From: Pseudomonadota bacterium
GTDB taxonomy: Bacteria; Pseudomonadota; Gammaproteobacteria; Steroidobacterales; Steroidobacteraceae
Length of the DNA: 64,000 nt
Assembly (NCBI GenBank): GCA_021792555.1
Contig: JAJYUL010000016.1
Coordinates: 1,632 to 65,631, forward strand
Direction: 5' to 3'
Shown: piece by piece, positions 1 to 13,044 of the stretch
How positions within the stretch are numbered: position 1 is the first letter of the stretch
Layout: each line of letters starts with the position of its first letter
Made by a program: the position numbers and the translations under genes
Notes under the pieces: model-generated
The model's input: only the letters and a program-made list of their open reading frames with translations
Database searches by the model: none
What the model was told of the DNA's origin: nothing

Positions 1-857
1 AAATCCGCCTTAAGATCCGGATGGCGATCATTGTGGAAGGTGTCACCATGCGCGATCTGGCCATCGATGCCCCGAATGGCGAGATTCATCTTCGCCAGAC
101 GCCAAGTCGTGTAATTCGATTCCTGGCCGTAGATGGAGATATCGGATTTGGCTTTGCCGCCGTTGCCGTTCCCACTGGCATGAGCACGGATGAACTCGAC
201 CGACTGGACGAACATGCCTGAGGAGCCGCAGCAGGGGTCATAGACCCGCCCCCGATAGGGCTCGAGCATCTCGACCAGGACTTTGACCACACAGCGGGGC
301 GTATAGAATTCGCCGCCTTTCTTGCCCTCGGCGCTTGCGAACTGGGACAGAAAGTATTCATAGACGCGCCCGAGCACGTCCTTGGCGCGGCTTGCCTCGT
401 CACCGATCTTGATATTGCTGATCAGATCAATCAGCTGGCCGAGACGCGTCTTATCGAGCGCCGGTCGCGCGTAATCCTTGGGTAGAACGCCCTTCAGGGC
501 CGGGTTGTCGCGCTCGATGCCGGTCATGGCTTCATCGACGATCTGCCCAATGGTGCTCTGGCGCGCCTGGGCTTTCAGGTGCGCCCAACGTGCCTCCGGC
601 GGCACCCAGAAGATGGAAACTGCGCGGTATTCGTCTTGGTCCTCAGGATCAGCCCCGCTCGCCTTCTCCGCTTCCAGCCTCGCGTGCTGCTCCTCGAAGG
701 CGTCCGAGATGTACTTGAGGAAAATCAGCCCCAGGACGACGTGCTTGTACTCGGCGGCGTCCATGCTGCCCCGCAGCGCGTCTGCCATCTGCCAGAGCTG
801 TGCCTCGTAGCCGACGTTGGCGGCCGTGTCGCTCTGCTTGCCTTTGGTCCGTGCCAT
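1..857 (-). CDS. hsdM: Type I restriction-modification methyltransferase subunit HsdM, N-terminal ~285 codons (3' end off window)
   Basis: My own translation of the minus strand from the ATG at 857 gives [56 protein letters not shown]...[36 protein letters not shown]. This contains the HsdM N-terminal motif and SAM motif I. It is absent from the ORF track because there is no stop codon in the window. Confidence 0.85.
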
Positions 858-874
858 TCGCCTTATGCTCTCCT

Positions 875-1141
875 CTATCGTCGGTTGACAGGTAACGGGG
901 GACGGAATGCGCGCTCGATCAATTTGGGCGCATCGCCATCGATGATTCCGGGGTGAGAGACGGTATGGGCATGGCGTAGGCGGGCCACACGGCGGTTCGT
1001 TGACGCCAAGCAGATTCTGGTGAGGTCCCCGAGCATGCGCGAGCCCGCCTTGCCTTCCTTTGCCGGGCGCCACCGCGCGAGCGCACCCGGCCTCATTCTT
1101 AGATTCGCGTCAATGCTAGGTCTTTGTGGCTTTTCTTTCAA
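875..1141 (-). CDS. Small hypothetical ORF directly upstream of hsdM; possibly a ~53-aa HTH (excisionase/AlpA-like) protein if it starts at an internal ATG
   Basis: 88-codon ORF with a TTG start, ending 18 nt before the hsdM ATG. The internal segment [44 protein letters not shown] has HTH-like spacing, but I recognise no firm family match. Confidence 0.25.
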
Positions 1142-1279
1142 TTACTTAGCGCGTTCGCACATTTTGTGCGGGATCAGACTGACGCCGCGATGGGAATCAC
1201 TGAAAGCGCGCTCGAAAATACCGCAATGTGCGACGACGGCCGGAAGGGTCCGTGGCCGTGGTCAACCCGCACTTATCCT

Positions 1280-1885
1280 CTATCCAGCCGCGCGAATGTT
1301 CCCGGGCTGTTGATACTTTCTGAACATCCCCACCACTAGCCCGTAGATTTCCAGGTCATCCTTGGGCCGGATGGGCGCGTAAGCCTTATTACCGGGTTTC
1401 AGGAAGAAGCCGCGGCGATCGTGCGCCAGATACTTCACCGTGAACTCGTTGTCCACGATGGCGACCACCACGTCGCCGGGCTTGGCCGGCGCTCCCCTTT
1501 TCACCACGACCGTATCTCCGGGCATCAACCCCGCCTCGATCATGGAGTCACCCTTTACGGTGAGCAGCACTGTCCGGGAAGGCTGATCAACCAGATACGC
1601 ATCGACATTCAGGCCCTCTACCGGCGCGTCGTTCACGGCATGCGGTATTCCTTGGCGCTGGATATCGGAGACTGGCCGCTCGAAGAACCGATCCCCTGGC
1701 TGCAGGCGCCCGCCGGGAGCGGAGTCCAAGAAACCCGCTTCCTTCATCCGTTTGACGAAGGCCGCCACCGCGGATGTCGAGCGAAGACCCAGAAGGGTCG
1801 CCACGGCTGAATACGACGGCAGCACCCTGTGCTCGGCGTAGTAATCACGAAGCTTCGCCAAGTATTCGGGGTCACGATTGAGCAT
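1280..1885 (-). CDS. LexA-like transcriptional repressor, S24 peptidase family
   Basis: 201 aa. N-terminal winged-HTH segment (LPSYSAVATLLGLRSTSAVAAFVKRMKEAGFL). C-terminal S24 domain with catalytic Ser (VKGDSMIEAGL) and Lys (FTVKYL) motifs in LexA-like order. No canonical Ala-Gly cleavage site seen. Confidence 0.8.
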   Translation of the reverse strand: MLNRDPEYLAKLRDYYAEHRVLPSYSAVATLLGLRSTSAVAAFVKRMKEAGFLDSAPGGRLQPGDRFFERPVSDIQRQGIPHAVNDAPVEGLNVDAYLVDQPSRTVLLTVKGDSMIEAGLMPGDTVVVKRGAPAKPGDVVVAIVDNEFTVKYLAHDRRGFFLKPGNKAYAPIRPKDDLEIYGLVVGMFRKYQQPGNIRAAG

Positions 1886-1913
1886 GGCGGACTATATCTA
1901 CTGGCAGTTTATT

Positions 1914-1943
1914 TTTATACCGCTCGCCGAACACACTTGCCAA
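1914..1943 (-). promoter_or_regulatory. Putative sigma70 promoter of the lexA-like gene
   Basis: Minus strand reads TTGGCA (1943-1938), an 18 nt spacer, then TATAAA (1919-1914), about 28 nt upstream of the ATG at 1885. Confidence 0.4.
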
Positions 1944-1957
1944 TCCGTCGATGCTGC

Positions 1958-1986
1958 TTGACAATAGAATGATCATTCGATATTAT
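1958..1986 (+). promoter_or_regulatory. Near-consensus sigma70 promoter of the tns operon with a palindromic operator in the spacer
   Basis: TTGACA (1958-1963), a 17 nt spacer, then TATTAT (1981-1986). A perfect 12-bp palindrome GAATGATCATTC (1967-1978) sits inside the spacer. A second inverted repeat GATATT-N6-AATATC (1979-1996) overlaps the -10. Confidence 0.55.
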
Positions 1987-2017
1987 ATGCAATATCAGAG
2001 CAGTCATTCTTGCTGTG

Positions 2018-2695
2018 ATGGAAGTGTCGGAGCTCATCACAATCGAGTTCCCAGAGGCGATCCGATCACGAAAGGTGGTGACGCGATCGCGGGCACGACC
2101 GACGGGCAAGTTCCCGTCCTGGAAAATGAGTCGGATGCTCCAATGGGAATCCGTCCCCGAGCTCAACGCAATGCGGCTCCTCGACGCGGATCCCTTCGTG
2201 CGTTTCTTTGCCGAGCAACCCCTGACGCTTCGTTACCGACTGAACGGGGAAAGCCGGATTCATTATCCCGACCTGCTGGTGGAGCGCGATAACGATCCGA
2301 AGGAACTCTGGGAAATCAAGTCGGCAAGGGATGCCGCGCGAGACGAGGTCGCCGCAAGAACCGCCCTGCTCTGTGCCGACTTGCCAGCTTATGGGTACGC
2401 ATACCGAGTGGTCTACGCGGAGGAGGTGTGCCGCCAACCGCGCCTCTCGAACGCCCTCGAAATCCTTAAGTGGGGTCGCGGCCCGATTACAGCCGTAGAA
2501 CGTGAGCGGATCCGCGCGATCCTGAATCGATTGCCCGCCGTGACATGGGGCGCCGCGGTGTCCGGCACCCTGGGACGCAACGGCCGTCACTCACTGTGCC
2601 GCCTCGTCCTCGAAGGCATGCTGGCCTTCGACGTCAACCAAAAGCTCGGTCTCGACACCCGATTCACATTATCCCGCATGAGGTTTGCACCATGA
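2018..2695 (+). CDS. tnsA: TnsA-like transposition endonuclease
   Basis: Restriction-endonuclease-like motif ...HYPDLLVERDNDPKELWEIKS (D...E-x-K). Stop overlaps the tnsB ATG (ATGA at 2692). GTG at 2015 is an alternative start. Confidence 0.85.
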   Translation: MEVSELITIEFPEAIRSRKVVTRSRARPTGKFPSWKMSRMLQWESVPELNAMRLLDADPFVRFFAEQPLTLRYRLNGESRIHYPDLLVERDNDPKELWEIKSARDAARDEVAARTALLCADLPAYGYAYRVVYAEEVCRQPRLSNALEILKWGRGPITAVERERIRAILNRLPAVTWGAAVSGTLGRNGRHSLCRLVLEGMLAFDVNQKLGLDTRFTLSRMRFAP

Positions 2696-4719
2696 GTACT
2701 TCGACGTTTTCCGCGGGGACCCTCGTCGAGATCGACGGCCACCGCCATGTACTTTTACGCAAAATCGACGCGGACCTCTGGCAGCTCGAGGAGGTTCGCA
2801 GCAAACGGATCACCGAGCTCGCCGAGCGCGATTTGCAAAGTGCCTACGTGCAGGGAAAACTCGGATTCTGCGAGGATGACCGCGAAGGTTCGCCTTCGGT
2901 ATCGAAACCCCGCCCCCCGGATTATCCCCCAGAGCAATGGGAGCGGGCGAAGATCCGACGTATGTACGTGCATGCAATCCTCGGCCTGCCCGGAACACGT
3001 CGAGCAATCGCGGCTGTCATTCAAACCACGTGGGACAACCTTCGCCAGCCTGATCGCCCACCCGCAGCCTCCACCGTGCTGGAATGGCGATCTGTGTATC
3101 TCAAAGCCGGCAAGGACATTACAGCCCTGATCGAACGCCACGCAGCAAAAGGGAACAAAAAGCCTCGCTATCCAGCAGAGGTTGAACAGTTCGCAAAGGA
3201 TGCGATAGATGCCCGATACATGACGCTACATCGCGGAACCATTCAAGATGTCGTCGATTATGCCGCGGCCAGTGTATGCCGGGAAAACGCCATGCGTCCG
3301 CAGAAAATGCAACTGCCACTTCCCACACGCCGCCTAGTCAAGCGTCTGATCCAGGAGATTCCGGCGTTTGACCGTTATGCGGCCCGTCATGGACGGATCG
3401 CCGCCGTGAAGGTTTTCCGCTCCGTGCAGGCTCATCGTGTAACGGTCGCCCCGCTCGAGCGGGTCGAGATCGACCACACGCTGCTCGATCTGTTCGTGAT
3501 CGATGATCGGACCGGATTACCCCTTGGGCGGCCCTGGCTGACAGTCTGCATAGATGACCACACCCGATGTGTGCTGGGGGTATATGTCGGCTTTGAGCCC
3601 CCGAGCTACCTGACCGTTGCCCGCTGCCTCAAGACAGCGCTGCTTCCCAAGAGCTGGCTTCCCGAGAAATATCCGTCCATCAAGTGTCAGTGGCTGGCGC
3701 ACGGGGTCATGCGCGAACTTGTCGTCGACAACGGTACCGAATTCCACAGCATCAGCCTGGAGAACGCCTGCTTCACCCTGGGCATCGAGATCCACTATGC
3801 CCCCCGTAAGGTTGCCTGGTTCAAGGGCAAGGTCGAGCGATTCATCGGTACAGCCAATCGCGGGGTGGCCCACGGGACGCCGGGAACGACCTTCGCGAAC
3901 ATTTTCGAAAAGGACGACTACGACCCATCGAAGCATGCCATCGTTCGTCAGTCGACTCTGCTGGAGATCGTCCACAAGTGGATCGTGGACGTGTATCACC
4001 AAAAACCACACCGGGCACTTGGTGTACCGCCTGCGCTCATGTGGACCAGGAGCATCGCGACCGAGGACATTCGGCTTCCTACCGATCCTGAGCGACTGGA
4101 TGCCATCCTAGGCCGGAGCGAAACCCGGATGCTCACCCACAAGGGCATCGAGCTCAATGGTCTCCTCTACAACTCCCCTGAGCTGACGGCACTGCGCCGG
4201 CGGCTCGGAGATCGGTTCGAGGTCGAGGTCCGCGTCGACGCCACCGACATCGGCGCAATCATCGTTCTCCCGCCTGATCGGGGGCCGCTGATTCGAGCAC
4301 ACGCCCTGGCTACCGACTACGCGGGCGGCCTTAGCGAATGGCAACACAAGGTGATTCGGCGCTACGCGGCACGGGAAGCAGGCCGCTCCGATCTCCAGGG
4401 CTGGGTCGAGGCGAAGCGGGAGATCGCCGAGCTGATCGACCGAGAGCTCATGCATCGAAAATCGAAGTCCCGGAAACGCATTGCGCGCTATCAGGGCAAC
4501 GGCTCATCCCGTCCTGCCCCGCCGTCACCACCGCGCCCTGATCTCCCCTCGGCCACAGCGGTCGATCCGGGACCCGCTCTGGCGTCGCCAGCGCATCCGG
4601 AGGCAATTCCGGCGGTCGCGCCGACGAAGGACATCTACCCGCTCACGGAGGGTCCTGTCCGCAAGTACACGGCGATTCTCCGCAAACACACAGGCCCAGA
4701 AGCCGAGGCTCAGGAGTAA
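2692..4719 (+). CDS. tnsB: TnsB-like DDE transposase (Mu/rve integrase superfamily)
   Basis: DDE triad context VEIDHTLLDLFVID / LVVDNGTEFHS / FKGKVERF. The start at ATG 2692 (MSTSTFSAGTLVEIDG) is chosen over the ORF-track start at 2545, which overlaps tnsA. Confidence 0.9.
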   Translation: MSTSTFSAGTLVEIDGHRHVLLRKIDADLWQLEEVRSKRITELAERDLQSAYVQGKLGFCEDDREGSPSVSKPRPPDYPPEQWERAKIRRMYVHAILGLPGTRRAIAAVIQTTWDNLRQPDRPPAASTVLEWRSVYLKAGKDITALIERHAAKGNKKPRYPAEVEQFAKDAIDARYMTLHRGTIQDVVDYAAASVCRENAMRPQKMQLPLPTRRLVKRLIQEIPAFDRYAARHGRIAAVKVFRSVQAHRVTVAPLERVEIDHTLLDLFVIDDRTGLPLGRPWLTVCIDDHTRCVLGVYVGFEPPSYLTVARCLKTALLPKSWLPEKYPSIKCQWLAHGVMRELVVDNGTEFHSISLENACFTLGIEIHYAPRKVAWFKGKVERFIGTANRGVAHGTPGTTFANIFEKDDYDPSKHAIVRQSTLLEIVHKWIVDVYHQKPHRALGVPPALMWTRSIATEDIRLPTDPERLDAILGRSETRMLTHKGIELNGLLYNSPELTALRRRLGDRFEVEVRVDATDIGAIIVLPPDRGPLIRAHALATDYAGGLSEWQHKVIRRYAAREAGRSDLQGWVEAKREIAELIDRELMHRKSKSRKRIARYQGNGSSRPAPPSPPRPDLPSATAVDPGPALASPAHPEAIPAVAPTKDIYPLTEGPVRKYTAILRKHTGPEAEAQE

Positions 4720-4723
4720 TCCA

Positions 4724-5734
4724 ATGGCCATGCCGAGAAACCTCATTGATCGGATCCTGGTCCCCCACGCCGCCTTTCAGGGCGCGCTGCGGCGCATCGG
4801 TCAGTGCTACCGGAACGCAGAAGCACGCGGCAATCCGGCCTGCCTGGCCATCGTCGGGCCCTCGCGAACCGGCAAGACCAGCGTCATGGAGCAGTTCGCA
4901 TCGGGACATCCCATGGTGCGCACCGACGAGGGGCTCGAAGTGCCGATTCTACGGGTGAAGACGCCATCCAAGCCCACCGTCAAATCAATGGCGGAGATCA
5001 TGCTCCGGGAGATGGGCGATCCGCGATTCGACAAGGGGACAGAAAACGCACGCACCGGGCGGCTCATGACGCTGATGCGCAACTGCGGAACCCGCATGGC
5101 CATGATCGATGAGTTCCAGCACTTTTACGACAAAGGCCAGAACAGGGTCATGCACCACGCCGCCGACTGGCTGAAGGTTCTCGTCGATGACACGGGGATC
5201 GGGCTCGTAGTGGCCGGCATTCCCGGTTGCCTCGCGACTATCGAGCAGAACGAACAGCTGCGGGGGCGGTTCCGCACGCCTGTAACCTTCGAGCGGTTCG
5301 ACTGGAGAAGTCCCGAAGACCGCGAAGAGTTTGCCGCTATCCTGAGTGCGTTTTACGATGCGCTCGCTGAGCACGTCGACCTCCCGGACTTCACATCGGC
5401 GGAGATGGCGTTCAGGCTGTACTGCGCGACGGGCGGGCTGATCGGGTATCTCGCCATGCTGCTCAGCCAGGTGGTCTGGGACGCCATTGATGACAAACGG
5501 AAGGCGGTCACCCTCAAGCATCTTCGCGAGGCCTTCGCGCACTCCGTGCGCAGCAGCCACGACTATGGCGATGCTCCGGATCCATTCGGTCCTCGCTTCG
5601 CCACCGAGCCGTCGGAGGAACTGCTCGCCAAAGTGTCTCGGATTGGCGCTGCCGCGCCGGCGGTGAGCGAGGGCCGTCCGTCCCGCCGCAAGGTGTGGCA
5701 TGCGCACGCTCGAGATGTGCTCTCCGCCGCGTGA
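4724..5734 (+). CDS. tnsC: TnsC/TniB-like AAA+ ATPase transposition regulator
   Basis: Walker A IVGPSRTGKTS and Walker B MAMIDEFQH. Starts 4 nt after the tnsB stop. Confidence 0.85.
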   Translation: MAMPRNLIDRILVPHAAFQGALRRIGQCYRNAEARGNPACLAIVGPSRTGKTSVMEQFASGHPMVRTDEGLEVPILRVKTPSKPTVKSMAEIMLREMGDPRFDKGTENARTGRLMTLMRNCGTRMAMIDEFQHFYDKGQNRVMHHAADWLKVLVDDTGIGLVVAGIPGCLATIEQNEQLRGRFRTPVTFERFDWRSPEDREEFAAILSAFYDALAEHVDLPDFTSAEMAFRLYCATGGLIGYLAMLLSQVVWDAIDDKRKAVTLKHLREAFAHSVRSSHDYGDAPDPFGPRFATEPSEELLAKVSRIGAAAPAVSEGRPSRRKVWHAHARDVLSAA

Positions 5735-5743
5735 GCCAGCGCG

Positions 5744-8143
5744 ATGCGCTTGCTGTGCCGCACGCCGCGACCGCACGAGACGGAAAGTCTGTTCGGCTTC
5801 GTCCTGCGCGTGAGTGAGGCCAACGGATACGACACCCCGCGTCACATTTGGAAGGCCGCCGACCTGCCTCGCGGTTCCGACCTCGCTCCCCGGTTCCCCA
5901 CCGAACCGCTTGCCGCCCTCCTGGGACTGAGGAGCGATGCATTACATCCGCTTGCTTACCGCGCCGACCTGAAGAGCCGCGGATCGTTCAAGATCCTGGG
6001 TCAATCCCTCGGAGATGATTTGCGCAGCGAGCCGCTACGGCTGAAGCATCCGGCTTTTTGCCCGCGATGTGTCTCCGAGACGGGATACATCGACGCGTTT
6101 TGGGATCTCTCCGCCGCCGTGGCGTGCCCGATTCATGGATCGACGGTTCTCACCACGTGTCCGGCATGCGGGCATCGGATCGGATGGGAGCGGTCGGGTC
6201 TGCTCACCTGCGGCTGTGGTGGCTCGCTCCGGGACGCGCAGACGCAACGAGCGTCTCCGCCGGTCCTTGACCTCATGACGCTGCTCCAGGCAAGGCTCCA
6301 CGGCACGCACGGCGAGATTGAAAATCCGCGCGGCCTGCCCCACGAGCACTTGGTCTCGATGCCGTTTGGGGCACTGCTCCATCTGATCGCCGTGCTCGGC
6401 GACATCGCGGCCTCGGAGAAGGACAGAGAAGCTCGCCTCCTGCATGCGCCCACTGCACAGCGCTCGTTAGCCACAGCAGCGATGCAGCCACCAAAGTCGT
6501 CCGCTCCGGGGCGTCTGACTGCGCAGATCGCAGCGGCTGTCCAGATCCTGAGCAACTGGCCGCACGGATATCACGACTTTCTACGCACGCTCGGAGAGCG
6601 CGCTCTTGCTTCTGGCTGGAAGACCGTGAGCATGCGCGTACAGTTCGCCGGCATCTACGAGACGCTCTTCGAGAACCGGCCCGCGACGCGCGAGCATTTC
6701 GCGTTCTTGAAGGAGGAATTCATTGCCTTTGGCCTTAGGCACTGGGGCAAGGGCATCATCGATCCGCGGATGCTGCGCGACAAGACCGCGCTGAAGAATG
6801 CGCGGTTCGTGTCGAGATCGGAGCTCGCAAGGCGGCATCGACTCTGGGCGCCAACAGTGCGCAAGATGACCGCGTCAGGGGCACTGGCTGGCATCACGGT
6901 CCCCGTGAAAGGTATCGAGCGCGCGGTCGTCGATGCCGAGAACACGCCCATCCCCGCGCCGATCACAAAGATACTCAATGTCAGGCAAGCCGCGAGGCGG
7001 CTGGGGCTCACTGTTCGCGTGCTGAAGCGCCTCAGGGAGCAGGGAATCTACGATGCAGCCGAGCGGCGTGGATATGCGCACTCGTGGTTCGCGGACGAAG
7101 CAGCAACGTTCCGAGCCCGGCTGCTCGCTCTCGCGCCGGTCTCGTCGGGTCGCAACCGGCCGGGCACCGTCACGCTGAATGAAGTGGTGCGCAGGAGCAC
7201 GCTACCAGTTGAGACGCGTGTTGCGGTGGTGGTTGCGCTTCTGAACCATGCTCTGAAACCCGTGTGTCGGTCCGGCCCGAGTCCCGCCAGCATCCTGCTG
7301 AAGAAGCAGGACGTCGACACATTCATCGACAGCAACCTGAGACCGCTCCTCGGTTCGACCTGCTCCTTCAAGGAGTGCGCCCAGAGGACCGGTCTGTGCT
7401 CGTCCGCAATTGCGGGGGCGGTCAGAGCCGGTCATCTCGTGCAGACGGTAGTGAGGGGCAACAAACGGATCACCGTCGCATCGGTAGAACGATTCCGGAC
7501 CGCGTACCTTCCGCTGGCAGAAGTCGCACGGAAGAAACGTCGGTCGCCGCGCCTGCTGGCCAGGCTGATCCGCAAGAAGCGCCTATCTGTCATGTTCATC
7601 GATCGGGCGAACCACGCCAGTCCACAAGGATTCATCCGCCGCTCGCACGTCTCGACATTGATGGCTGCAGTCGCCGAATATGTCGCTGACCAGGCTGCGC
7701 ATCGTCCGCGGGTCAATAGCCTGGCGGAGCACGAAGATCGGCTACGCGCTTTCTGCGCGCGGAGGATCGAAGGCGGACAAGGTCTGCCGCGCAGGGGCGG
7801 CGTTCCGATCAAGCGGGTCATTGCGTCGGCATGCGGCTTCACCCGTGACCTGTTCTACGACCAGCCCCGTATTCAGCGCGTGCTCGACGAATTTGACCGC
7901 AAGGAGCGCAACATGCATAGGGAACGATGCTTGAGGCCTGCGGAAGTCGTAGCGGACTATCTGGCGAGATTAAAACAGGCGGGATCACCGCTGCCGTGCT
8001 GGCAGGGCCGACCGAACGTTCTTCGGATTGCCGAGGCGTGTGGGATTCGGCGGCATGCGATTCAGGGGGATGCCAAGATCGCGAAGATGCTGAACGAGTT
8101 CATGCGCCGAAGTGATTTCCGTAAGGCAACGCCCCGGCGCTGA
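5744..8143 (+). CDS. tnsD: TniQ/TnsD-like target-selection protein (799 aa)
   Basis: N-terminal TniQ-type region (PRPHETESLFGFVLRVSEANGY). Cys/His cluster CPRCVSETG...CPIHG...CPACGHRIG...CGCG. Several C-terminal HTH-like segments (VRQAARRLGLTVRVLKRLREQGIY; FKECAQRTGLCSSAIAGAVRAGHL; LRIAEACGIRRHAIQ). Confidence 0.8.
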   Translation: MRLLCRTPRPHETESLFGFVLRVSEANGYDTPRHIWKAADLPRGSDLAPRFPTEPLAALLGLRSDALHPLAYRADLKSRGSFKILGQSLGDDLRSEPLRLKHPAFCPRCVSETGYIDAFWDLSAAVACPIHGSTVLTTCPACGHRIGWERSGLLTCGCGGSLRDAQTQRASPPVLDLMTLLQARLHGTHGEIENPRGLPHEHLVSMPFGALLHLIAVLGDIAASEKDREARLLHAPTAQRSLATAAMQPPKSSAPGRLTAQIAAAVQILSNWPHGYHDFLRTLGERALASGWKTVSMRVQFAGIYETLFENRPATREHFAFLKEEFIAFGLRHWGKGIIDPRMLRDKTALKNARFVSRSELARRHRLWAPTVRKMTASGALAGITVPVKGIERAVVDAENTPIPAPITKILNVRQAARRLGLTVRVLKRLREQGIYDAAERRGYAHSWFADEAATFRARLLALAPVSSGRNRPGTVTLNEVVRRSTLPVETRVAVVVALLNHALKPVCRSGPSPASILLKKQDVDTFIDSNLRPLLGSTCSFKECAQRTGLCSSAIAGAVRAGHLVQTVVRGNKRITVASVERFRTAYLPLAEVARKKRRSPRLLARLIRKKRLSVMFIDRANHASPQGFIRRSHVSTLMAAVAEYVADQAAHRPRVNSLAEHEDRLRAFCARRIEGGQGLPRRGGVPIKRVIASACGFTRDLFYDQPRIQRVLDEFDRKERNMHRERCLRPAEVVADYLARLKQAGSPLPCWQGRPNVLRIAEACGIRRHAIQGDAKIAKMLNEFMRRSDFRKATPRR

Positions 8144-8195
8144 AGCCGGGTTGCGCGCGGCGCCCTGACTCAATACCGAACTTTCCAAAGGAAAT

Positions 8196-8217
8196 GCGGC
8201 GAGGATCTCCTCGCCGC
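8196..8217. terminator. Perfect 10-bp-stem GC hairpin between tnsD and the transposon end
   Basis: GCGGCGAGGA-TC-TCCTCGCCGC. No clear U-tract on the plus strand; a weak T-rich run (ATTTCCTTT) follows on the minus strand. Confidence 0.3.
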
Positions 8218-8240
8218 GAATTCACAATCGACCCAGATTG

Positions 8241-8321
8241 GTCCAGCTTTATGAGGTCCGCAGTCCGGCCTTATGGGGTCCAAGTCCAGCTTTTTGAGTC
8301 AACCCACATCATCTGCCCACA
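8241..8321 (+). repeat. Transposon terminal region: three tandem candidate TnsB-binding repeats plus the TGT/ACA terminus
   Basis: GTCCAGCTTTATGAGGTCCGCA (8241-8262), GTCCGGCCTTATGGGGTCCAA (8263-8283), GTCCAGCTTTTTGAGTCAA (8284-8302), then CCCACATCATCTGCCCACA (8303-8321). CCCACA occurs twice, so the exact end could be 8308 or 8321. Confidence 0.6.
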
Positions 8322-8337
8322 ACCAGCCACCAATGCC

Positions 8338-9108
8338 TCAGCCGCACTTCGAATCACCGCAGTTCAGACACGTCATGCACCCGTCCATCATCACGACGGC
8401 GGCGGTGCTGCATTTGGCGCAGAGCTGCGCGCCTTCCGGAAAATCGGACTTGGCAAACGCATCGGTCTGTCGGGCACGGGCCTCGTATTCGGCGCGCTTT
8501 TCATCCACCAGCTTCTGTTGATGCTCGTCGAGCTGCGGCTTGCGCAGCAGTCCGATCGTCTGCAGGTGCCGCTCGATGACGTAGCCGAGTTCGGCAATGA
8601 TCGACGGCATGAACTTCCCGCCCGGCTGCCAGTAGCCGCCGCGCGGATCGAACACGGCCTTGAGCTCATCGACCAGGAAGGTGACGTCGCCGCCCTTGCG
8701 GAACACCGCGGAGATGATGCGGGTCAGCGCGACGATCCACTGGAAATGATCGAGGTTCTTCGAGTTGATGAAGATCTCGAACGGTCGGCGCTGCTCGTAC
8801 TCGGTGCCTTCGTTGAGCACGATGTCGTTGATGGTCACGTACATGGCGTGATCGGAGATCGGCGTCTTGATCTTGTAGGTCGAGCCGATCAGCACCTCCG
8901 GGCGCTCAAGCTTCTCGTGCATCCGGATCACTTGAGCCATATGGCCGTTCTTGTCGCGCACCGTGGTGGTGGTGGGAATGGGCGGCAGATTCGTCGGTGC
9001 CGGCGAACTGGCCGCCTGCGCCACCGCGGCCTTCTCGGCCTGGATTTCCTCAGGCTTCTGCACCTGGTATTTGACGATTTTTCTCTCGATCTTGATGGTC
9101 ATGGTCAT
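8338..9108 (-). CDS. nrdJ: Class II (adenosylcobalamin-dependent) ribonucleotide reductase, small C-terminal polypeptide NrdJb
   Basis: 256 aa. C-terminal Cys cluster CAKCSTAAVVMMDGCMTCLNCGDSKCG. Lies directly downstream of nrdJa, as in the split Pseudomonas-type NrdJa/NrdJb. Confidence 0.85.
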   Translation of the reverse strand: MTMTIKIERKIVKYQVQKPEEIQAEKAAVAQAASSPAPTNLPPIPTTTTVRDKNGHMAQVIRMHEKLERPEVLIGSTYKIKTPISDHAMYVTINDIVLNEGTEYEQRRPFEIFINSKNLDHFQWIVALTRIISAVFRKGGDVTFLVDELKAVFDPRGGYWQPGGKFMPSIIAELGYVIERHLQTIGLLRKPQLDEHQQKLVDEKRAEYEARARQTDAFAKSDFPEGAQLCAKCSTAAVVMMDGCMTCLNCGDSKCG

Positions 9109-9136: not shown

Positions 9137-12100
9137 TCAATACTTGCCGAAATAGCCTTCCTTCAGGCTATCGAAGAGATTGGCGGCCGAATGCAGCTCG
9201 CCCTCGTACTCGATCTCCTCGTCGCCGCGCGCCTCGACGACGGTCCCGTCATCGAGCGTGAATTTGTACACCGTGTTCTTCAGGTCCTGCTCCTTGACCA
9301 GCACGCCCTGGAAGGCCTCCGGGTTGAAGCGGAAGGTCGTGCAGCCCTTCAGGCCCTGCTCGTGGGCGTACAGGTAGATGTCCTTGAACTTCTCGTACGG
9401 GAAGTCCGTCGGCACGTTGGCCGTCTTCGAGATTGAGGAGTCGACCCAGCGCTGGGCAGCCGCCTGCACGTCGACATGCTCCTTCGGCGTGATGTCCTCG
9501 GAGGCGATGAAATAATCCGGCAGCTTCTCGGACTCGGCGGCCGCACCGGGCGTGGCGTGCGGATTGACGAGCTCGCGGTACGCCAGCAGCTCGAAGGAAT
9601 AAACGCCGATCTTCTCCTTGGTCTTGCGCCCCGGCCGGATCACGTTGCGGAAGTAGTGGTGCGCGAACGATGGCTCGATGCCGTTCGAAGCATTGTTGGC
9701 GAGCGAGAGCGAAATGGTTCCGGTCGGCGCGATCGACGTGTGGTGCGTATAGCGTGCGCCCGTTTCGGCCAGTTCCTCGACGAGACGGGGCGCGATCTGC
9801 GCGATCCGCTGCATGTAGCGGCTGTACTTGGCGTGCAGGACGCGTCCCGGCACCTGATCGCCGACCTTCCAGCCGTCGCGGATCATCTCGGGACGCTTGC
9901 GCAGCATGGCGCCCGTCACCGTGAACAGCTCGGTCATGATGGGCGCGGGGCCTTTTTCGCGCGACAGATCGAGCGCCTCCTCCCAGCCGGCGACCGCCAT
10001 TTCGCGCGCGACGTCCTCGGTGAACTTCACCGATTCGGGCGAACCGTACTTGATGCCGAGCAGCGCCAGGGTGCTGCCGAGGCCGAGGAACCCCATGCCG
10101 TGGCGTCGCTTGCGCATGATTTCGTCGCGCTGCCGCTCGAGCGGCAGGCCATTGATCTCGACCACATTGTCGAGCATGCGGGCGAAGACCTTGACGACCT
10201 GGCGGTACTCCTCCCAGTCGAAGCGCGCATGATCCGTGAACGGGTCGCGCACGAATCGCGTCAGATTGACAGAACCCAACAGGCAGCTTCCATACGGTGG
10301 AAGCGGCTGTTCGCCGCACGGATTGGTGGCGCGGATGTTCTCACACCACCAGTTGTTGTTCATCTCATTGACGCGGTCGATGAGAATGAACCCAGGCTCG
10401 GCGAAATCGTAGGTCGACGTCATGATGACGTCCCACATGCGCCGTGCCGGCAGTGTCTTATAGATCTTGCACGCGACCAGCCCGTCCTCGTTGAGGACGT
10501 ACTGGTCGTGCACGGGCCACTCGCGCCAGATGAACTTGGCAGTGTCGTTCAGATCGGGCTTGTCGGCCTCGTATTCCTTGCGCGACAGCGGAAACGCGAG
10601 CTTCCATTCGCCGTTTTGCCGAACCGCCTGCATGAACTCATCGGTGATCAGCAACGACAGATTGAACTGCCGCAGCCGGCCGGCCTCGCGCTTGGCCTTG
10701 ACGAACTCCATGGCATCGGGATGGCCGACGTCGAACGTGCCCATCTGCGCGCCGCGGCGGCCGCCGGCCGAGGAGACGGTGAAACACATCTTGTCGAAGA
10801 TGTCCATGAACGACAGCGGGCCTGAGGTGTAGGCACCCGCGCCCGAGACGTACGCGCCGCGCGGGCGGAGCGTCGAGAACTCGTAGCCGATACCGCAGTT
10901 GTGGATGACCGCGAGCCCGCGGTTACCGGCCAGGTAGTTGTTGTGCCCATCGACCGTGAAGTCGAAGAACGTCTCCGGCAGCGGCAACGCCCGCTCGATT
11001 CGCTCGACCGGCCGCAGGCTCATCGCGAAGCGAATGAGATCGGCGAGCTGCGGGAAGTGTGCAAGCCACTTGTCCAGCCAGACTCGGCTGACGCGGTCGC
11101 GGCGGTGGTGCCCGTGATAGAAACCCAGGCGCCGGCGCTCTTGATCCGACAGCGCGGCGTTTGCGGATTCGAGCGCCTGACGCAGCGCATCGGGCATCGC
11201 GTAGCGGTCATGCTGGCCGGGCGTGGACGCGCAGCGCGCAATGCGCTGGCGCTTGCCCGCATCGGCCATGAACTGCGCGACGCGGCCCAGGAACTGCGAG
11301 TCGGAGATCTTGAGGACTGCGCCGCGGCCTGCCGCTGCGGGGAGGCCGCTTAGAATATGCGCGCGCCTGTCGCAGAGCGTAACCGCGCCGTGAACGCCGA
11401 ATAGGCCGAGGAGCGCCTGAAGCTCGCGCGCAAATGTCTCGCTCTTCGTCGAAATGGACACGCTGCCGCGCTCGGTCGAGACCGTCCCGTCGGTGTCGAT
11501 CAATCCGGCCAGGAACGGCAGGAAGAAGCGCTCCGGTTCCGCCGCCACCCATGCCGGCACGCGCAGCGGCGCGGATCTCCCGCCAGTCTGCCCATCGATG
11601 AGATCGACCGCGCTTGCATCGAAGCGGTCCGCCGTGAGGTCCCACACCGGAGTGCCGTTTGCGGTCCTCGCGGACACCACTTGCGCCCGGCTGTCGGCAA
11701 AGGCGGCAAAGAACGCTGCGTAACGCTCCGCGACCTCGCGCGCGGCTGCGCGAATCTTGAACACGATCCGGCGTCCGGATGCACCGGCCTTGCCATGCCA
11801 TCTCAGGCGCGCGGGCTTGTCCGGGTGTTCCTCTTCGCATGCGCTGCCGTCGCCGAGATGCGCCCCGGCGAACCATGCCTCGAGCGCGCGCTCCGTCTCA
11901 CCCGCCCATTCGTAGCGGTGGTGTACGAGCGCATCCGACTCCCTCACCTCATCGGCCCGCACGTAAACCAGCCGCTCTTCGCGGAACACCAGCACCGGGT
12001 GGCGAATCGAAGTCGTCAGCGAGAGGCCGTTTGACCAGATGCGGATGTTCTCGTGCTGCGGCACATGCGTGGTCATGTGCCGCAGGATCCTGCGCATCTC

Positions 12101-12601
12101 GAAGCGACGCGTCTCGCGATCGTAACTAAGAATGCACTCGTGCTTCTCCTGCACCGCCTGATCGGCGGTAACCAGGCCGCGCTCGGTGCGCACCCAGGTG
12201 CCAGGCGCCACGCACCCGGCCTTCAGCGTCAGGCCTGCCTCGTGGACCTTGCCCAGGATGTTGTCCATCGAGTCCTCGATGGTGCCCGAGACGGTGCAGT
12301 TGATCGTCGAGGTAGCCGGCTTGTGCTCAAGCGCTCCGGCGTTGGAGGTGACGCGGCCGGCCGGAATGGCGCCGCGGCGCAGCGCCCAGAGGAATCGCTC
12401 GTACCAGTGCTCGCGCAGCTCTTCCCGCTCGACGTCCGCCAGCGCGCGCGCAACACGCTTGTACGTGTCGTCCATCGTCTTGTCGATGGGCGTGCCGTCT
12501 TTGGCGGTCAGCCGGTACTTCTTGTCCCAGATGTCGATGGACGCTTCCTGGAACGGAATGGCGTCTACATCCTTTGATTCGATCTTCACGACGGTATTCA
12601 T
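9137..12601 (-). CDS. nrdJ: Class II ribonucleotide reductase large polypeptide NrdJa, intein-containing precursor
   Basis: Start MNTVVKIESKDVDAIPFQEASIDIWDKKY at 12601. Conserved RNR blocks NPCGEQPLPPYGSCLLGSVNL and TSIAPTGTISL. 1154 codons including a 439-codon insert. Confidence 0.9.
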   Translation of the reverse strand: MNTVVKIESKDVDAIPFQEASIDIWDKKYRLTAKDGTPIDKTMDDTYKRVARALADVEREELREHWYERFLWALRRGAIPAGRVTSNAGALEHKPATSTINCTVSGTIEDSMDNILGKVHEAGLTLKAGCVAPGTWVRTERGLVTADQAVQEKHECILSYDRETRRFEMRRILRHMTTHVPQHENIRIWSNGLSLTTSIRHPVLVFREERLVYVRADEVRESDALVHHRYEWAGETERALEAWFAGAHLGDGSACEEEHPDKPARLRWHGKAGASGRRIVFKIRAAAREVAERYAAFFAAFADSRAQVVSARTANGTPVWDLTADRFDASAVDLIDGQTGGRSAPLRVPAWVAAEPERFFLPFLAGLIDTDGTVSTERGSVSISTKSETFARELQALLGLFGVHGAVTLCDRRAHILSGLPAAAGRGAVLKISDSQFLGRVAQFMADAGKRQRIARCASTPGQHDRYAMPDALRQALESANAALSDQERRRLGFYHGHHRRDRVSRVWLDKWLAHFPQLADLIRFAMSLRPVERIERALPLPETFFDFTVDGHNNYLAGNRGLAVIHNCGIGYEFSTLRPRGAYVSGAGAYTSGPLSFMDIFDKMCFTVSSAGGRRGAQMGTFDVGHPDAMEFVKAKREAGRLRQFNLSLLITDEFMQAVRQNGEWKLAFPLSRKEYEADKPDLNDTAKFIWREWPVHDQYVLNEDGLVACKIYKTLPARRMWDVIMTSTYDFAEPGFILIDRVNEMNNNWWCENIRATNPCGEQPLPPYGSCLLGSVNLTRFVRDPFTDHARFDWEEYRQVVKVFARMLDNVVEINGLPLERQRDEIMRKRRHGMGFLGLGSTLALLGIKYGSPESVKFTEDVAREMAVAGWEEALDLSREKGPAPIMTELFTVTGAMLRKRPEMIRDGWKVGDQVPGRVLHAKYSRYMQRIAQIAPRLVEELAETGARYTHHTSIAPTGTISLSLANNASNGIEPSFAHHYFRNVIRPGRKTKEKIGVYSFELLAYRELVNPHATPGAAAESEKLPDYFIASEDITPKEHVDVQAAAQRWVDSSISKTANVPTDFPYEKFKDIYLYAHEQGLKGCTTFRFNPEAFQGVLVKEQDLKNTVYKFTLDDGTVVEARGDEEIEYEGELHSAANLFDSLKEGYFGKY
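10898..12214 (-). mobile_element. Intein with LAGLIDADG homing-endonuclease domain inside nrdJa
   Basis: Junctions GLTLKAG|CVAPGTWV... and ...LAVIHN|CGIGYEFSTLRP. Block B TTSIRHP. Two LAGLIDADG-type motifs, WFAGAHLGDGSA and FLAGLIDTDGTV. Block F/G FFDFTVDGHNNYLAG...VIHN followed by a +1 Cys. Confidence 0.85.
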
Positions 12602-12762
12602 GTGTCCGCGGCGCCCCAAGTGTCTGCACACCGGATCACAGGAGATACGGGCGGCGCGGAACGCGCGGGGCTGCGCGCACCGGATCCGCCGGTACGCCGA
12701 TCCACAGCCTGTATCCCCCTGAGCCTCCCCGAACGCGCGATCTCGCAGCCCCCCGAAGGCGG

Positions 12763-12778
12763 ACACAAGATCTTGTGT
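12763..12778. promoter_or_regulatory. Candidate NrdR box
   Basis: Perfect 16-bp palindrome ACACAAGATCTTGTGT (ACAC-N8-GTGT, as in the NrdR-box consensus), 10 nt downstream of the putative -10. A degenerate partner ACGCGCGATCTCGCAG lies at 12733-12748, about 30 bp centre to centre. Confidence 0.5.
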
Positions 12779-12788
12779 CGGGGTAAAG

Positions 12789-12817
12789 AGCCTAATGAGC
12801 ACCCGCCTTGACGTCAA
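12789..12817 (-). promoter_or_regulatory. Putative sigma70 promoter of nrdJab
   Basis: Minus strand reads TTGACG (12817-12812), a 17 nt spacer, then TAGGCT (12794-12789). Confidence 0.4.
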
Positions 12818-13044
12818 GATTCCATTCGGCCGCAAAGGCGTCGCTCTAAGCCTTCAAAAACAAAGGGTTATGATGAAACCCGCCAATTCGATGCCAGGAA
12901 TTTTTTGCGGAAAGCCGAAAGCAGCACCGCGGTATAACCCCAAGATATTGTATCCCCCGGAATCGCACAGGTTGTGCACACCCTGTCCCCCGAGCCCGCA
13001 GGACGCGCGAATGCTCGGGCCGCAACGGCACGACCCCCGCGCGG

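Follow-up and report, generated by a model that had tools for sequence, protein, structure and literature searches.

A Tn7-like transposon family that probably uses the 3′ end of the class II ribonucleotide reductase gene nrdJ as its landing site

Results

One end of a Tn7-like transposon lies next to nrdJb

Here we describe a Tn7-like transposon at the left edge of a 64,000-nucleotide (nt) stretch of DNA (hereafter the window) from a Steroidobacteraceae bacterium (GenBank assembly GCA_021792555.1, contig JAJYUL010000016.1, positions 1,632 to 65,631), where it ends shortly behind nrdJb, the gene for the C-terminal subunit of a split class II, B12-dependent ribonucleotide reductase (RNR). From its gene set, its nrdJb-proximal end and the loci of its relatives, we consider it highly probable that positions 1-8308 are the right-hand part of a cut-and-paste transposon of more than 17 kb, and that the 3′ end of nrdJ is the landing site of its family, reached by TnsD-type targeting.

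The tnsABC and tniQ/tnsD genes form a tightly packed operon on the + strand, in which tnsA and tnsB overlap in an ATGA at 2692 and the remaining gaps measure 4 and 9 nt, as the open reading frame coordinates confirm for an earlier, sequence-only reading of this DNA (Table 1). The four-gene operon with catalytic and Walker motifs described in that reading was borne out by the reading frames, by Pfam and by alignment to solved TnsA, TnsB and TnsC. TnsA residues E...PD...ExK align with those of the solved PseTnsA; TnsB matches PseCAST TnsAB (1.4e-72), Tn6677 TnsB (5e-65) and Tn7 TnsB (2e-11) in the PDB with its DDE residues aligned; and TnsC matches VchTnsC (2.8e-27) with Walker A and B (GKT, DE) aligned. 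The convergent gene at 8338 was correctly called nrdJb: its TSCPD-domain product aligns to positions 587-759, the C-terminal ~170 residues, of monolithic B12-dependent RNR, which justifies the name.

The nrdJb-proximal end carries three tandem repeats within 8241-8301, spaced 21-22 bp (chance expectation for the motif first proposed, 0.16). We set the terminus by aligning 14 other junctions from relatives, oriented on the nrdJb stop codon; in every aligned junction the conserved element sequence starts with TGTGGG, or a near variant, followed by two bases and the first repeat. In the window this places the terminus at 8308, where TGTGGGTT is followed by the first repeat in the geometry of Tn7, an 8-bp tip and then a TnsB site. 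The tip therefore lies 29 nt from the nrdJb stop and 165 bp past the tnsD stop, which displaces the terminus first proposed at 8321 (178 bp after the tnsD stop and 16 nt from that of nrdJb); the junction alignments assign TGTGGGCAGATGA, at 8309-8321, to a host spacer outside the element. That the spacer forms part of the element was ruled out, because the same end type occurs behind different spacers and different elements occur behind the same spacer. Instead of the 5-bp target duplication ACCAG (8322-8326) predicted earlier, the corrected boundary predicts TCATC (8309-8313) as the copy on this side. The element is lower in GC than its surroundings, as first claimed, although the contrast is weaker than the 53-55% versus 70% then given: GC content is 0.616 for 1-8308 (0.55-0.67 in 500-bp windows) against 0.695 for 13000-64000. 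Inside the end lies a hairpin with a T-run, and an equivalent hairpin occurs in the packed-repeat (R-type) ends of six related loci (L004, L022, L023, L031, L033 and L038; L numbers designate loci throughout).

Leftward, the element runs through a LexA-like gene and hsdM past position 1, and its contig breaks inside hsdS. A European Nucleotide Archive contig with an identical element (L001) adds 10 kb of cargo, comprising by Pfam a complete hsdM (HsdM_N/N6_Mtase), hsdS, DUF3644, hsdR, a metallophosphatase (Metallophos) and a HATPase_c_3 protein; because it does so without reaching an end, the element must exceed 17 kb. At the far end we would expect dispersed repeats and an inverted TGTGGGTTGAC-type tip, then a second copy of TCATC and, past it, either a displaced fossil R-type end or the host sequence that comes after the fossil in L038. 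A search for the repeat motif in the window and L001 found no second end. Walking outward with the HsdR N-terminus of L023 as query gave only partial, non-identical proteins, and with that of L054 a metagenome scan returned 80 loci, none with tns or nrdJ genes and none from the L054 contig; a viral-contig scan gave no match, and a plasmid collection yielded only remote TniQ matches.

Table 1. Features of the transposon and the adjoining nrdJ genes in the window
Feature	Position	Strand	Evidence and remarks
hsdM, 5′ part	1..856	-	Type I restriction-modification methylase; element cargo; gene runs off the left edge of the window; read from translation
LexA-like S24 peptidase/repressor gene	1280..1885	-	Pfam Peptidase_S24, LexA_DNA_bind; NCBIfam lexA over full length at 93.6 bits, below cut-off
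Candidate tnsA promoter, TTGACA-17-TATTAT	1958..1986	+	Promoter scan, 11/12 matches; region conserved in the clade; putative function
tnsA, endonuclease subunit	2015..2695	+	Pfam Tn7_TnsA-like_N (PF08722), 32 bits, above cut-off; NCBIfam TnsA-like
tnsB, DDE transposase	2692..4719	+	Pfam Mu-transpos_C, weak rve; PDB matches
tnsC, AAA+ regulator, TniB family	4724..5734	+	Pfam TniB (PF05621), 1.4e-28
tniQ/tnsD, target selector, 799 aa	5744..8143	+	Pfam TniQ (PF06527), 3.3e-15; HTH_17
Hairpin and T-run terminator within the element end	8186..8217	-	Terminator scan; 9 pairs, 8 of them G-C; oriented against nrdJb read-through
R-type transposon end	8241..8308	-	Three packed TnsB-site repeats (8241-8258, 8263-8280, 8284-8300) and 8-bp tip AACCCACA (8301-8308)
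Host spacer, 29 nt	8309..8337	.	Differs among hosts with the same end type; common to different elements within one host
Last 48 nt of nrdJb, coding DGCMTCLNCGDSKCG*	8338..8385	-	Proposed TnsD recognition sequence; conservation; putative binding
nrdJb, TSCPD-domain C-terminal subunit of split class II RNR; attachment-site gene	8338..9108	-	Pfam TSCPD
nrdJa, class II RNR large subunit with LAGLIDADG intein	9137..12835	-	Pfam Ribonuc_red_lgC, 4.5e-120; Intein_splicing; LAGLIDADG_3

Relatives insert at a fixed distance from nrdJ

A search with the TnsD protein gave 53 relatives, and loci were then retrieved for many of them. Those whose TnsD is 63-100% identical to that of the window form the window clade (L003, L005, L022, L023-L030, L054 and L055), and every member shows the same order: a LexA-like gene, tnsABCD, the end, followed by nrdJb and nrdJa in convergent orientation. 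More distant relatives, which have the canonical order of nrdJ, end, regulator and tnsABCD, adjoin nrdJ as well (L004, L033, L035, L037 and L011), among them one whose TnsD is 39% identical to the window's (L004) and one in the betaproteobacterium Mitsuaria (L011), which keeps the same tip spacing behind a monolithic nrdJ that is only ~38% identical. Hosts thus range from Steroidobacteraceae-like Gammaproteobacteria with a split nrdJ to Mitsuaria with a monolithic one, at TnsD identities of 32-100%. Across ~15 host and element combinations, a TGTGGG tip with two to three packed 21-bp repeats stands 29-34 nt past the nrdJ(b) stop, with one outlier at 14 nt (L027), the R-type end being proximal in all: at 29 nt in the window, L003, L005, L054 and L022; 30 nt in L004 and L038; 31 nt in L023 and L011; 32 nt in L044 and in L033, L036 and L055, which share one host spacer; and 34 nt in L031. 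The expectation that homologues of this TniQ/TnsD neighbour nrdJ 3′ ends therefore holds in every case in which both the packed-repeat end and the DNA just outside it can be seen.

The spacers between stop codon and tip form eight families, unrelated or only weakly related to one another, which go with the host and not with the element: L005 and L054 have one spacer in common and differ in end type, whereas a single end type stands behind different spacers in the window, L023 and L054. One host species, recognised by its identical NrdJb proteins and 32-nt spacers, has four different occupants, all beginning at one position: the decayed mini-element of L031, a canonical tnsABC-tniQ element in L033, a degenerate end with MarR and DUF2231 genes behind it in L036, and a window-clade element in L055. 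The mini-element spans 890 bp (8806-9695 of L031) and comprises an R-type end and an L-type tip; a perfect 5-bp duplication, TTTGT, flanks it there and also in L032 and L034. Comparison of related genomes at nrdJb, as the sequence-only reading had proposed, thus revealed a site that is polymorphic within a single host species, though not a truly empty one. Fixed spacing, unrelated spacers and polymorphic occupancy together support that reading's proposal of a Tn7-like element with nrdJ as its TnsD-directed attachment site.

The same data bear on the idea that one ancient insertion behind nrdJb was inherited vertically and diversified in place, with no targeting at all. Most cases do derive from metagenome bins of related, Steroidobacteraceae-like bacteria in which the genes around nrdJ are arranged alike, as this history would predict. 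We nevertheless regard it as highly improbable, given that presence and absence are polymorphic, with four unrelated occupants behind one identical nrdJb allele and spacer; that both operon orientations are found at the site; that the betaproteobacterial case is independent; and that element phylogeny does not follow the host spacer (L005 versus L054; L023 versus L027).

The conserved nrdJ coding end and its putative selector

The nrdJ 3′ coding end is the sole sequence common to all sites. Across ten split-nrdJ hosts, 29 of the last 48 positions of nrdJb are invariant, and the variable positions are wobble positions. By analogy with Tn7 at glmS, the 799-aa TniQ/TnsD would bind a conserved stretch of 40-50 bp at the very end of the class II RNR gene, whether nrdJb or the 3′ end of a monolithic nrdJ, and then recruit TnsC, after which TnsA and TnsB would insert the element ~25-34 bp past the stop codon with its packed-repeat end beside the gene. 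The target gene would be left intact, with the element supplying a replacement terminator.

The build of the selector is compatible with such a role. An AlphaFold (AF2) model based on 31 homologues (mean predicted local distance difference test score, pLDDT, 84) divides the protein into an N-terminal half (core, ~residues 1-400) that matches whole I-F3 TniQ structures (Foldseek, 3e-7), a predicted chain of winged-helix or Xis-like modules (residues ~358-632) and two predicted helical repeats (residues 660-790). Sequence profiles against the PDB detected the TniQ core only, with TniQ chains at 4e-13. Among 50%-identity representatives, 368 proteins are related to the C-terminal 400 residues at E ≤ 1e-3; almost all are 700-800 aa long and match at the same position, and many C-terminal columns are invariant in the 31-member alignment. 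TnsD proteins are modular, consisting of a TniQ core and a DNA-binding extension (PMC10293859); the modelled selector, with a type I-F3-like TniQ core and a ~400-aa winged-helix extension, fits this picture, and the extension presumably lets it bind DNA itself.

The ends, in turn, match the transposase that adjoins them. Two repeat types occur in the window clade, ...GCTGGAC and ...TGATAC, and TnsB residues 1-240 are 77-92% identical within a repeat type and 62-71% identical between types, whereas the remainder of TnsB is not split in this way (L022 and L003, for example, show 71% identity in the N-terminal part and 91% over the remaining residues). Because repeat type tracks TnsB residues 1-240, we take the repeats to be cognate sites of the adjoining transposase.

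Fossil ends and the points against nrdJ targeting

In three related host lineages (L031, L038 and L044), nrdJb flanks that lack tns genes carry homologous fossil R-type ends of ~200 bp, with two to three packed repeats and a hairpin/T-run terminator (L038 9796-10000, L031 8806-9695, L044 6806-7000); the fossil end appears to serve as the nrdJb terminator. Relatives with an end sequence but no tns genes, which the sequence-only reading had named as counter-evidence, therefore exist, but they do not carry the window's sequence, and because they are separate fossil or mini-elements of other repeat types they do not refute the proposal. In five of the eight spacer families, moreover, the spacer itself resembles a degenerate Tn7-type tip and one TnsB site, 1-3 nt past the stop (shuffle p 0.002-0.03), as at L031 8772-8805 and the L005, L011 and L044 junctions; the window spacer (8309-8337) shows no such resemblance. 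The 29-nt spacer of L022 (junction 12400-12620) consists mostly of two extra, slightly diverged copies of the last 10 nt of nrdJb (GTGCGGCTGA / GCGCGGCTGA / GTGCGGCTAG).

These relics raise another explanation, in which TnsD does not read nrdJ and elements are instead swapped at an old graveyard of Tn7-like ends, by homologous recombination between conserved nrdJb and common end or cargo sequence, or use TnsB sites to home to relics of resident ends. The presence of an element or a fossil R-type end in every nrdJb flank examined and the resemblance of most spacer families to a degenerate terminal unit would fit such exchange, as would the comparison of the window with the 93%-identical L038, whose homology stops ~5 nt before the nrdJb stop so that the last two codons and the spacer differ (KCG* versus KCM*). 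Yet in the window, L022 and L004 the tip stands at 29-30 nt behind spacers without any end resemblance, and in Mitsuaria the spacing is the same in spite of the low nrdJ identity. The 5-bp duplication of L031 marks a real transposition at this position, and the coding end is all that the sites have in common. We therefore consider exchange at a hotspot quite unlikely as the general explanation.

Several observations nonetheless weigh against targeting of nrdJ by TnsD. Because homology with L038 stops where it does, the window copy itself may owe its position to recombination with an already occupied site and not to a transposition event within this lineage. Repeated TnsD-directed insertion would not be expected to place a fossil end proximal to newer insertions. 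A search for a truly empty site through three nrdJb alleles met an element or a fossil end in every flank. No far end and no duplication flanking its own copy is visible for any window-clade element, as the loci or contigs all stop within cargo; L004, which has both packed and dispersed ends, lacks a matching duplication (ATGTT versus GTCCA). At L140 a degenerate end adjoins a GNAT gene and not nrdJ. One clade member departs from the spacing, the tip of L027 standing 14 nt past the nrdJb stop; its TnsD is the same as that of L023, and between stop and tip it has only the first 14 nt of the L023/L038-type spacer, so that either a 17-nt deletion or an off-register insertion could account for it. 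Finally, for most distant relatives (<40% TnsD identity; L006-L010, L013-L021, L138, L139 and L142) the R-type end lies outside the examined DNA, so targeting of nrdJ across the whole family is an extrapolation. Further loci of four distant TnsD relatives (P0031, P0047, P0022 and P0027) showed no R-type end beside a recognisable flank. Two candidate ends, a reverse-site cluster in L011 (21489-21557) and a forward cluster in L138 (5533-5599), were rejected on inspection.

A probably inverted tns module and a putative LexA-like regulator

Throughout the window clade the tns operon reads toward the packed-site R-type end, whereas in Tn7, Tn6677, L004, L033 and L140 tnsA lies beside that end. This arrangement could mean that the nrdJb-proximal end is functionally a left end, the clade having a normal internal layout and being inserted opposite to Tn7, L004 and L033; it is tnsD, after all, and not tnsA that adjoins the window's end, and in L004, L007 and L009 the end just past tnsD is the left, dispersed-site end. 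Dispersed sites directly after tnsD are also found in L006 and L010. The window's end, however, has three packed, contiguous sites (21-22 bp), an internal terminator facing nrdJb and a stop spacing like those of tnsA-proximal, nrdJ-adjoining ends (sites, terminator and spacing in L004, L011 and L033; sites and terminator in L004, L031, L033 and L038), and relative to the R-type end its hsdM-hsdS-DUF3644-hsdR cargo is oriented as it is in L140. A left end beside nrdJb is thus unlikely, and inversion of the tns module alone would be the simplest account of the operon orientation.

The LexA-like gene is divergent from tnsA in every clade element, is 81-95% conserved in L003 and L055, and stands where canonical relatives have a small DUF6471 gene. 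Its catalytic Ser and Lys align with those of E. coli LexA, and the Ala-Gly cleavage site does not align. Between the two hexamers of the candidate tnsA promoter lies a perfect palindrome, GAATGATCATTC (1967-1978), a candidate operator. We tentatively raise the possibility, itself rather doubtful, that this clade responds to DNA damage: the LexA-like repressor would bind GAATGATCATTC, the SOS response would inactivate it and transposition to the nrdJ site would be switched on, with the inverted operon, which points out through the R-type end at nrdJb, as part of the rewired control. If so, the same stress that raises demand for ribonucleotide reductase would trigger transposition to the nrdJ site.

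Discussion

Relation to known Tn7-like systems

Like Tn7 at attTn7, the element combines heteromeric TnsA/TnsB with TnsC and a TniQ-family selector, has at its visible end a terminus of the TGT...ACA type, with an 8-bp tip followed by ~20-bp TnsB sites, and sits at a fixed 25-34 bp past a conserved essential gene that stays intact, with its packed-site end proximal; the 5-bp duplication typical of Tn7 is seen in a relative. It differs in that the TnsD of Tn7 recognises the 3′ coding end of glmS and here the gene is nrdJ; in that its TnsB (E 2e-11) and TnsC are no more than distant relatives of the Tn7 proteins, and its selector has hardly any match to Tn7-type TnsD (8v32), with E 0.34 by sequence and 1e-3 by fold; and in that no tnsE is seen in this element, whose far end lies beyond the visible DNA, and the tns operon runs the opposite way with respect to the R-type end. 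The closest solved homologues of TnsB (1e-72), TnsC (3e-27) and the TniQ core come instead from I-F3 systems, some relatives of which target the end of a gene, parE, directly by means of a long TniQ (PMC11406308). Unlike those systems, the element has a TniQ with a predicted ~400-aa winged-helix extension and another attachment gene. Gene and Pfam tables listed no cas8/5, cas7, cas6 or CRISPR array in the window or in the 10-kb flanks of clade members (17 kb visible), a result obtained with no dedicated CRISPR repeat search of the cargo.

RNR genes are recurrent targets of Tn7-like elements: nrdB is used in Acinetobacter (PMC11014353) and nrdD in bacteria and archaea (bioRxiv 10.1101/2025.07.27.667033), and both papers note the repeated targeting of RNR genes. 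In A. baumannii, remnants of ancestral insertions are fixed downstream of nrdB (PMC11014353). The elements described here likewise insert past an RNR gene and leave fixed remnants, in this case solo R-type ends, but class II nrdJ is not mentioned in those papers. Attachment genes listed in surveys and reviews are glmS, tRNA genes, comM, yhiN, parE, guaC, yciA, rsmJ and ffs, and we found no literature linking nrdJ with Tn7-like elements, TniQ or attachment sites in a search that extended to neither supplementary tables nor subscription journals. We therefore describe this as a Tn7-like family with a new attachment gene, whose variant traits are the probably inverted tns module and the putative LexA-like regulator.

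On this evidence the class II, B12-dependent RNR gene would join the short list of safe landing sites of the Tn7 family, and, with nrdJ added to the known nrdB and nrdD, all three RNR classes would be used. The pairing of an I-F3-type TniQ core and a predicted ~400-aa winged-helix array with the nrdJ site would be a new natural selector and site combination, and a candidate for programmable or orthogonal site-specific insertion.

Cargo, inteins and other features of the nrdJ flank

The element itself carries a type I restriction-modification system together with further genes of defence type. By Pfam, the cargo of related elements is likewise mostly of defence type, including type I restriction-modification, Kiwa (KwaA/KwaB), DUF4411 with Peptidase_M78, Fic/RhuM and a BubE/ThiF/Multi_ubiq set with BrxR (regions covered: 1-5200 of L022, L023 and L054, and 12500-15500 of L142). 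The nrdJb flank in Steroidobacteraceae-like soil bacteria is a polymorphic defence-island hotspot, in which fossil transposon ends now appear to terminate nrdJb.

The nrdJ operon also carries an intein with a homing endonuclease in nrdJa, and hence a second, independent mobile element in the operon of the attachment gene. Among close relatives, nrdJa is either intein-free, at 711-715 aa (L022, L023, L031 and L044), or intein-containing (L038 and L054).

Two further loci have unusual structures. In L010 (18830-18900) a dispersed-site (L-type) end directly abuts forward TnsB-type sites of another, decayed R-type end, indicating tandem accumulation of elements. L012 (480-2971), on a 3-kb contig, has an ATPase gene behind a dispersed-site end; the N-terminus of a tnsD, 87% identical to that of the window, comes directly after the ATPase gene, and tnsABC is absent from the interval. 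The locus is probably either a chimeric assembly or the product of a deletion.

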